A stretch of DNA of 847 nt from Escherichia coli (GTDB taxonomy: Bacteria > Pseudomonadota > Gammaproteobacteria > Enterobacterales > Enterobacteriaceae): NCBI RefSeq assembly GCF_003334335.1, contig NZ_QOWQ01000146.1; one strand, 5' to 3'. A program made the position numbers and the translations under genes. The stretch's first letter is position 1. The number at the start of each line of letters is the position of its first letter. Of this stretch, positions 18 to 847 are shown in pieces. Below the pieces are notes generated by a model. It made no database searches. It saw nothing but the letters and a program-made list of their open reading frames with translations, and was not told where the DNA came from.

Positions 18-46
18 TTGCATTTGCTTAATAGAAAGGCGTTAAT
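18..46 (+). promoter_or_regulatory. Candidate sigma70 promoter for agaR (weak match)
   Basis: TTGCAT at 18-23 (3/6 to TTGACA), a 17-bp spacer, then GTTAAT at 41-46 (4/6 to TATAAT). This would put the transcription start near 53-56, inside the CGAAA repeat block, which is the geometry expected for autorepression. The hexamers are weak and other registers are possible. Confidence 0.25.
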
Positions 47-49
47 AGG

Positions 50-80
50 CAAAACGAAATGAAACGAAAGTTTTACGAAA
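50..80. promoter_or_regulatory. Putative AgaR operator (autoregulatory): phased CGAAA direct repeats in the agaR leader
   Basis: Directly visible: ACGAAA at 54-59, 64-69 and 75-80, plus TGAAA at 60-64, giving 10-11 bp centre-to-centre spacing (one helical turn). Positions 50-73 (CAAAACGAAATGAAACGAAAGTTT) fit every position of the reverse complement of the AgaR operator consensus as I recall it from the literature (WRMMTTTCRTTTYRTTTYNYTTKK). That consensus is from memory and should be verified. DeoR-family repressors typically bind direct repeats as oligomers. Confidence 0.55.
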
Positions 81-83
81 GGA
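79..83 (+). promoter_or_regulatory. Shine-Dalgarno / ribosome-binding site for agaR
   Basis: AAGGA at 79-83, followed by a 6-nt spacer (84-89, CTTACT) before the ATG at 90. The spacing and purine-rich core are typical of an enterobacterial ribosome-binding site. Confidence 0.6.
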
Positions 84-89
84 CTTACT

Positions 90-847
90 ATGAGTAATAC
101 CGACGCTTCAGGTGAGAAGCGAGTGACTGGCACCAGCGAGCGACGAGAACAGATCATTCAGCGTCTGCGACAGCAAGGGAGTGTGCAGGTTAACGATCTG
201 TCGGCATTGTATGGCGTATCTACTGTGACGATCCGCAACGATCTGGCGTTTCTGGAAAAGCAGGGGATCGCTGTGCGTGCCTATGGTGGCGCGTTGATCT
301 GCGATAGCACGACGCCGTCAGTCGAGCCATCAGTGGAAGATAAAAGCGCACTGAACACCGCGATGAAACGCAGCGTTGCGAAAGCTGCCGTTGAGTTGAT
401 TCAGCCAGGTCATCGGGTTATCCTCGATTCCGGGACCACCACTTTTGAGATTGCTCGTCTGATGCGCAAGCACACTGACGTAATTGCGATGACCAACGGT
501 ATGAACGTGGCTAATGCGTTGCTGGAAGCGGAAGGCGTTGAGCTGCTGATGACCGGCGGGCATTTGCGCCGTCAGTCGCAATCTTTTTACGGCGATCAGG
601 CTGAGCAATCGCTGCAAAATTACCACTTCGATATGCTGTTTCTTGGTGTAGATGCGATCGATCTGGAGCGCGGCGTCAGCACACATAATGAAGATGAAGC
701 TCGTTTAAACCGTCGGATGTGCGAAGTTGCGGAACGGATCATCGTGGTCACCGATTCCAGTAAGTTCAATCGTTCCAGTTTACATAAGATCATTGATACT
801 CAACGTATCGACATGATCATTGTTGATGAAGGCATTCCTGCGGATAG
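90..847 (+). CDS. agaR: DeoR-family transcriptional repressor AgaR (aga operon repressor); 3'-partial, with no stop codon inside the window
   Basis: ATG at 90-92 opens a reading frame with no stop through 847 (252 complete codons plus 2 bases). Translation begins [67 protein letters not shown]... and ends ...[13 protein letters not shown]. The N-terminal ~55 residues (about nt 141-300) have the DeoR-type helix-turn-helix pattern; the rest (about nt 340-847) looks like a DeoR C-terminal sugar-phosphate sensor domain. Recognition as AgaR is from memory, not a database search. As I recall, full-length AgaR is about 269 aa, so roughly 17 C-terminal residues lie beyond the window. A Shine-Dalgarno sequence sits at the correct spacing upstream. 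Confidence 0.9.

Follow-up and report, generated by a model that had tools for sequence, protein, structure and literature searches.

The window, by which we mean the whole 847-base stretch of DNA analysed here, consists of agaR with 89 bp of upstream DNA and matches E. coli K-12 MG1655 at every base (100% identity). The same sequence was found in 5,321 of 5,426 complete E. coli genomes, where RefSeq annotates it as agaR, and the ATG at 90-92 is the agaR start codon, opening a reading frame that leaves the window. The product scored 445 bits against the NCBIfam AgaR equivalog NF040755 (cut-off 260) and 115 bits against a DeoR/GlpR-family equivalog model, which is under that model's cut-off. 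Pfam domains HTH_DeoR (PF08220, residues 18-74, E 3e-21) and DeoRC (PF00455, residues 89-247, E 4e-55) were both present, so that the protein is a DeoR-family regulator with an N-terminal DNA-binding and a C-terminal sensor domain, in agreement with the preliminary description of this DNA, which had named a DeoR-type repressor, AgaR. The kbaZ (agaZ) gene lies divergent from agaR, 248 bp upstream of the agaR ATG, and agaS-kbaY-agaBCDI are found further along. In K-12 a truncated agaA and PTS IIC pseudogenes occupy the DNA between agaV and agaS (L002 7751-8675), which is the known K-12 deletion in the aga cluster; it places the agaS promoter nearer to agaR than in other strains.

Within the species, positions 17-92 (76 bp) were unchanged in 5,267 of 5,322 E. 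coli records; over the full 847 bases, identity of at least 99% was retained by only 2,485 of 5,324 records, indicating that promoter and leader vary less than the coding part. For comparisons beyond the species we assembled a phylogenetic footprint of 80 orthologous agaR loci from species-representative genomes (AgaR 82-98% identical), which take in Escherichia, Citrobacter, Klebsiella, Raoultella, Enterobacter, Kluyvera, Yersinia, Serratia, Buttiauxella, Cedecea and others, with Salmonella arizonae and diarizonae among them; conservation was computed on the 79 distinct 92-nt upstream sequences that these loci provided. The features of the window are as follows.

18-23, plus strand: -35 hexamer TTGCAT, named in Table S1 of PMC2760140; 17-24 is conserved.
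30-39, plus strand: A-rich element in the promoter spacer, AAAAGAAAGG in most genera and AATAGAAAGG in E. coli; 86-100% conserved per position in 79 sequences.
41-47, plus strand: -10-like element GTTAATA (GTTAAT at 41-46), 17 bp after the -35 hexamer; 42-47 is invariant in 79 orthologous sequences.
50-73, minus strand: very probable 24-bp AgaR operator, AAACTTTCGTTTCATTTCGTTTTG, with 0 mismatches to the reported consensus WRMMTTTCRTTTYRTTTYNYTTKK.
51, plus strand: agaR transcription start (agaRp), within about 1 nt, from Table S1 of PMC2760140 (90 - 39 = 51).
54-59, plus strand: ACGAAA copy 1, exact match, +4 to +9.
56-70, plus strand: operator core GAAATGAAACGAAAG, three GAAAN pentamers; 82-100% conserved per position in 79 orthologous promoters.
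64-69, plus strand: ACGAAA copy 2, exact match, +14 to +19.
75-80, plus strand: ACGAAA copy 3, exact match, +25 to +30, overlapping the Shine-Dalgarno sequence.
79-83, plus strand: Shine-Dalgarno sequence AAGGA, read from the sequence, 6 nt before the ATG; 87-99% conserved.
90-847, plus strand: agaR coding sequence, residues 1-252, from translation and RefSeq annotation; the gene extends beyond the end of the window.

The promoter assignment begins from a mapped transcript end. Table S1 of Mendoza-Vargas (2009; PMC2760140) records a sequenced agaR 5' end 39 nt upstream of the start codon, represented by 3 reads, assigns it to promoter agaRp in the class "Known sigma 70", 1 nt off the annotated start, and lists ggtgGGCTTGCATttgc as the -35 box. 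Conservation in the 79 orthologous upstream sequences is 73-100% per position over the -35 region (17-24), and the block at 41-48, GTTAATAG, is also conserved. The -10-like element within this block precedes the mapped start by 4-5 nt; it is atypical and unusually near to that start, which counts against the explanation we favor below. A simple sigma-70 scan of positions 1-200 called no promoter, missing this one because its -10 lacks an A at hexamer position 2. Overlapping the -35 hexamer is an inverted repeat, GCAAG-GTGGG-CTTGC at 7-21, that was flagged as terminator-like, and in orthologues its variable left arm often pairs with GGCTTGC. We rejected it as a conserved hairpin, for which it is weak (median fold z-score of -0.7 over 79 orthologues).

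Downstream of these elements are the repeats on which the preliminary description had centered. It reported three exact ACGAAA copies at helical-turn spacing, located between promoter and ribosome-binding site, with the third copy running into the Shine-Dalgarno sequence, and all of this was borne out: the three copies are the only ones in the 847 bases, all on the plus strand and spaced 10 and 11 bp apart, the AAGGA at 79-83 overlaps copy 3, and with transcription starting at about 51 the repeat block can be placed more precisely, as beginning at the start site itself. Three ACGAAA copies anywhere in the window were reached by only 6 of 200 shuffles. For any hexamer present three times at 10-11 bp spacing, dinucleotide-preserving shuffles gave 6 cases in 20,000 for the whole window, and the corresponding counts were 0 in 20,000 for the non-coding positions 1-89 and 2 in 20,000 for the A-rich positions 45-89. 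In the aga cluster, 9 of the 16 exact ACGAAA copies fall in the regulatory intergenic 5% of the sequence. GAAA begins in the window at 34, 56, 61, 66 and 77, and the starts at 56, 61 and 66 reveal a 5-bp period beneath the 10-bp period of ACGAAA; the repeat is more aptly described as a series of 5-bp GAAAN pentamers or as a pair of 10-bp RAAACGAAAK units (51-60 and 61-70).

The minus strand at 50-73, which spans about -1 to +23 relative to the agaR start, agrees at every base with the AgaR consensus 5'-WRMMTTTCRTTTYRTTTYNYTTKK-3' that Ray and Larson reportedly proposed in 2004 (Mol Microbiol 51:813). Two perfect matches to this string occur in the 12-kb aga cluster, the one in the window and another 52-75 nt upstream of agaS. 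When up to 3 mismatches were allowed there were 6 matches against a chance expectation of 0.04, all of them upstream of agaS or in the kbaZ-agaR intergenic region. This confinement to aga regulatory regions supports the reported consensus and could not have come from an incorrect string; the exact limits of the footprint, like the 24-bp consensus itself, are taken here from secondary accounts.

Conservation across genera follows the outline of the operator and separates the three copies from one another. In the 79 sequences the drifting positions (1-16, 25-29, 71-78 and 84-88) are flanks and linkers, and AA at 52-53 forms a conserved block just ahead of the core. Copy 2 is 96-100% conserved throughout, and copy 1 has a GAAA that is 99-100% conserved preceded by A54 at 63% and C55 at 80%. 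At copy 3, C76 (25%) and G77 (29%) are at chance level, and only the As shared with the Shine-Dalgarno sequence are conserved. The proposal that the direct repeats form one operator, with a signal extending over 50-80, is therefore upheld for copies 1 and 2, which belong to the conserved core, and for 50-73, which carries the consensus match, but not for copy 3, which is outside the consensus and restricted to Escherichia; in the other direction the conserved signal reaches upstream as far as 30-39.

Promoter spacers normally drift. The conserved spacer element at 30-39 contains GAAAG at 34-38, and its GAAA, beginning at 34, is 22 bp from the first GAAA of the core. The T at position 32 of E. 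coli departs from the A of its orthologues (95%), and an A37C change is found in two Escherichia lineages. From its conservation and this 22-bp interval, the GAAAGG element may be an extra AgaR contact.

The motif recurs at the other promoters of the regulon. We built a weight matrix solely from the orthologous agaR leader 20-mers; in the 12-kb E. coli cluster it returned 6 hits of at least 12 bits, all upstream of agaS or in the kbaZ-agaR intergenic region, which together are 5% of the sequence. Across 446 kb of orthologous loci there were 72 hits of at least 15 bits outside the leaders, and 71 of these were 100-250 bp upstream of agaR. Sixty-two of the non-leader hits lay at about -216 on the opposite strand and correspond to a kbaZ operator, GAAACAAAACGAAAG, which the leader matrix recovered in 63 of the 80 loci. 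The scan of the divergent promoter region for further copies that had been suggested at the outset thus yielded this operator together with an AgaR-like element, AAAGAAACATAATGAAAG. At agaS, the core 15-mer GAAATGAAACGAAAG is also present upstream of the E. coli gene in identical form, and in 8 other species the agaS promoter carries GAAACGAAACGAAAG, always 71-72 nt away from the ATG; these cross-genus promoters were collected through AgaS homologues. The E. coli operators were compared by core-anchored alignment, automatic alignment slipping by 5 bp owing to the internal pentamer period. At agaR, agaS and kbaZ alike the motif has the same sense orientation, upstream of the gene. A scan of metagenomes for the core 15-mer gave 120 loci. 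Most were fortuitous matches in unrelated DNA, and those related to aga came almost exclusively from E. coli.

Several further observations concern the kbaZ-agaR intergenic region, the kbaZ-proximal half of which is conserved throughout across orthologues. A CRP-like site, TCTGATCTGATTCACA, is found at window positions -58 to -43 (L001 2942-2957), with 1 mismatch to TGTGA-N6-TCACA, and is conserved across orthologues; it is followed by the additional AgaR-like element mentioned above. The kbaZ-proximal operator (L001 2876-2895, opposite strand) and the agaR leader operator at 51-70 start at about -216 and about -40, respectively, and the distance between their centers is a constant ~176 bp across genera. 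This spacing is compatible with cooperation or looping but does not count as evidence for it, since the region as a whole is constant in length.

Published work on AgaR is in line with these results. PMC4694137 describes AgaR as an autoregulator, and papers citing the primary study, this one included, state that AgaR binds the agaR, kbaZ and agaS promoters. In the agaZ, agaR and agaS regions AgaR binds several repeats in tandem, according to PMC5018945, which cites Leyn et al. (2012), and AgaR is reported to form tetramers (PMC10991401). Guharajan et al. (2021; PMC8667592) cloned the 20-mer CTTTCGTTTCATTTTCGTTT as an AgaR site; in a synthetic promoter it gave repression on AgaR titration when placed at +1, and an AgaR effect when placed at -61. 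This 20-mer differs from the reverse complement of window positions 51-70 at 3 places, equal to a CG moved by one base. Table S3 of that paper labels it PkbaZ, and within the aga cluster nothing comes near to it except the agaR leader site, at 3 mismatches. Either the sequence was adapted or it contains a transcription slip.

Taken together, the locus identity, the placement of the repeats with respect to the mapped start, the match to the consensus, the conservation of the core and the recurrence in the regulon, all from this analysis, lead us to conclude with high confidence that window positions 50-73 are the operator for AgaR at the E. coli agaR promoter. The earlier proposal of a probable AgaR auto-operator is thereby supported by the reported consensus, conservation and recurrence at agaS and kbaZ, and by the passages on AgaR in the citing papers.

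Other explanations of the repeats were weighed against this one. The composition of the leader, which is 47% A over 45-89, would favor a functionless product of chance, but phased triples of this kind appeared in at most 6 of 20,000 shuffles, and the near-invariance of the operator core across 79 orthologous sequences refutes chance as the source, leaving it a probability we regard as negligible. Because all three copies are transcribed (+4 to +30), and the motif keeps its sense orientation upstream of agaR, agaS and kbaZ, the repeats might act in the mRNA leader, as a structure, a protein-binding element or a translational element, instead of as a DNA operator. The leader matched no Rfam family at E values up to 1, however, and its fold was no better than that of shuffled sequences (z = -1.14); the 3' arm of a small hairpin (71-75) is not conserved, extra copies of the motif lie upstream of the agaR promoter and so outside the agaR mRNA, and the 20-mer of Guharajan et al. 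works through AgaR from -61, where it is untranscribed (PMC8667592). We consider a role in the RNA very improbable, and on the same Rfam result, fold z-score and unconserved hairpin arm a riboswitch or attenuator leader was rejected.

A further possibility is that the site chiefly serves some other regulator, such as a paralogous repressor of the DeoR type whose CTTTC/GAAAG motif is similar. Several E. coli DeoR paralogues do score against the AgaR protein, and the predicted TagR operators of E. coli Nissle, CTTTCAAAATGAAAGTAAA, resemble the motif. The motif is nevertheless specific to agaR orthologues and aga promoters, with 71 of the 72 extra matrix hits in the agaR-kbaZ intergenic region, titration of AgaR changes the output from the 20-mer (PMC8667592), and the literature assigns the binding to AgaR in the relevant passages of PMC4694137 and PMC5018945. 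A different principal regulator therefore appears very improbable.

The AgaR operator at 50-73 leaves copy 3 outside its limits, and whether all three ACGAAA copies nevertheless act as one functional operator in E. coli, with the third as an Escherichia-specific auxiliary subsite adding affinity or cooperativity, is a separate matter. In favor of such a subsite, the E. coli agaR and agaS operators both have GAAA at 0, +5, +10 and +21 from the start of the core, GAAAG at 77-81 is unchanged in 5 Escherichia lineages in which nearby positions vary, and the near-uniformity of 17-92 among E. coli records, set beside the variability of the full window, takes in copy 3. On the opposite side are the chance-level frequencies of C76 and G77 in the 79 orthologous sequences, the lack of the +21 GAAAG at the agaS promoters of 8 other species, the position of copy 3 beyond the 24-bp consensus match, and the Shine-Dalgarno sequence, which accounts for its conserved As; the common +21 offset was, moreover, noticed post hoc. 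We hold the three-copy operator to be doubtful. Judged from sequence, copy 3 is outside the conserved operator and would be at most an auxiliary AgaR subsite, peculiar to Escherichia.

The +21 offset has some features of its own. GAAAG at the agaS promoter (L002 7441-7445) and GAAAG at 77-81 of the agaR leader are both exactly 21 bp past the first GAAA of the core, and other genera are without the +21 GAAAG at both promoters. The E. coli agaS copy apparently arose by duplication of CAAGTGAAA. It is conceivable, although we think it rather unlikely, that in Escherichia only the agaR and agaS operators have both gained a GAAAG two helical turns past the first core GAAA and that AgaR uses it. Our search of the secondary literature on AgaR found no earlier description of an Escherichia-only extension with GAAAG at +21.

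Several described systems are related to this one to different degrees. With the AgaR operators of the E. coli K-12 aga regulon (agaR, agaZ/kbaZ and agaS) the locus, the repressor and the reported consensus are all the same, and what is added here is that only two of the three copies fall within the conserved core and that, upstream of it, the spacer contains a conserved element. The operator site and the autoregulation of agaR are already known, nothing in our results differs in kind from the described AgaR site, and the judgement made at the outset that the site is not novel was correct. GlpR, the tetrameric DeoR/GlpR-family repressor of the glp regulon, recognizes tandem half-sites that are phased at 10 bp and overlap promoters; its recognition sequence and effector differ from those of AgaR, which is a separate member of the family. 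The motif that Leyn et al. (2012; J Biol Chem 287:28047) reportedly reconstructed for the AgaR regulon across Proteobacteria, as cited in PMC5018945, presents a picture that is reproduced by our 79-sequence alignment and matrix scan.

The TagR operators tagO1 and tagO2 of E. coli Nissle 1917 (PMC12226905) share with the agaR site a DeoR-family repressor and a CTTTC...GAAAG-type operator overlapping the transcription start, and the tag cluster also resembles aga in that a CRP site lies close by and the regulator gene is divergent, a likeness on which the authors of that study remark. In contrast to aga, the tag cluster has different genes and is absent from K-12, and its operators are predicted ones in which the arrangement is inverted and not purely direct. 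The "AgaR" of Streptococcus (PMC5018945, PMC4694137) has in common with the E. coli protein its name and the pathway controlled, but belongs to an unrelated family (GntR/HutC), recognizes a palindrome and is non-homologous to the E. coli AgaR system.

These data suggest a simple scheme for the control of agaR, in which binding to the agaR promoter, autoregulation and the tetrameric state are reported in the literature. AgaR, probably as a tetramer, would occupy the tandem GAAA repeats that its own promoter carries between about +1 and +23, and may also touch the spacer GAAAGG. Bound at +1 it would be expected to hinder RNA polymerase binding or escape, a steric effect suggested by the position of the site, and the hindered initiation would lower AgaR synthesis, amounting to negative autoregulation. 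Sister operators at the divergent kbaZ and at agaS would bring three transcription units under one repressor. Growth on N-acetylgalactosamine or galactosamine relieves the repression.

Beyond correct annotation the significance of the site is slight, because AgaR autoregulation through the agaR promoter was reportedly published by Ray and Larson in 2004. What is gained is a precise map, which fixes where transcription starts and where the 24-bp operator, the invariant 15-mer core and the conserved element in the spacer lie, and this map puts just two of the three repeats in the conserved operator. If AgaR does use the GAAAG at +21, the agaR and agaS promoters of Escherichia would represent a parallel, lineage-specific lengthening of two operators in one regulon.
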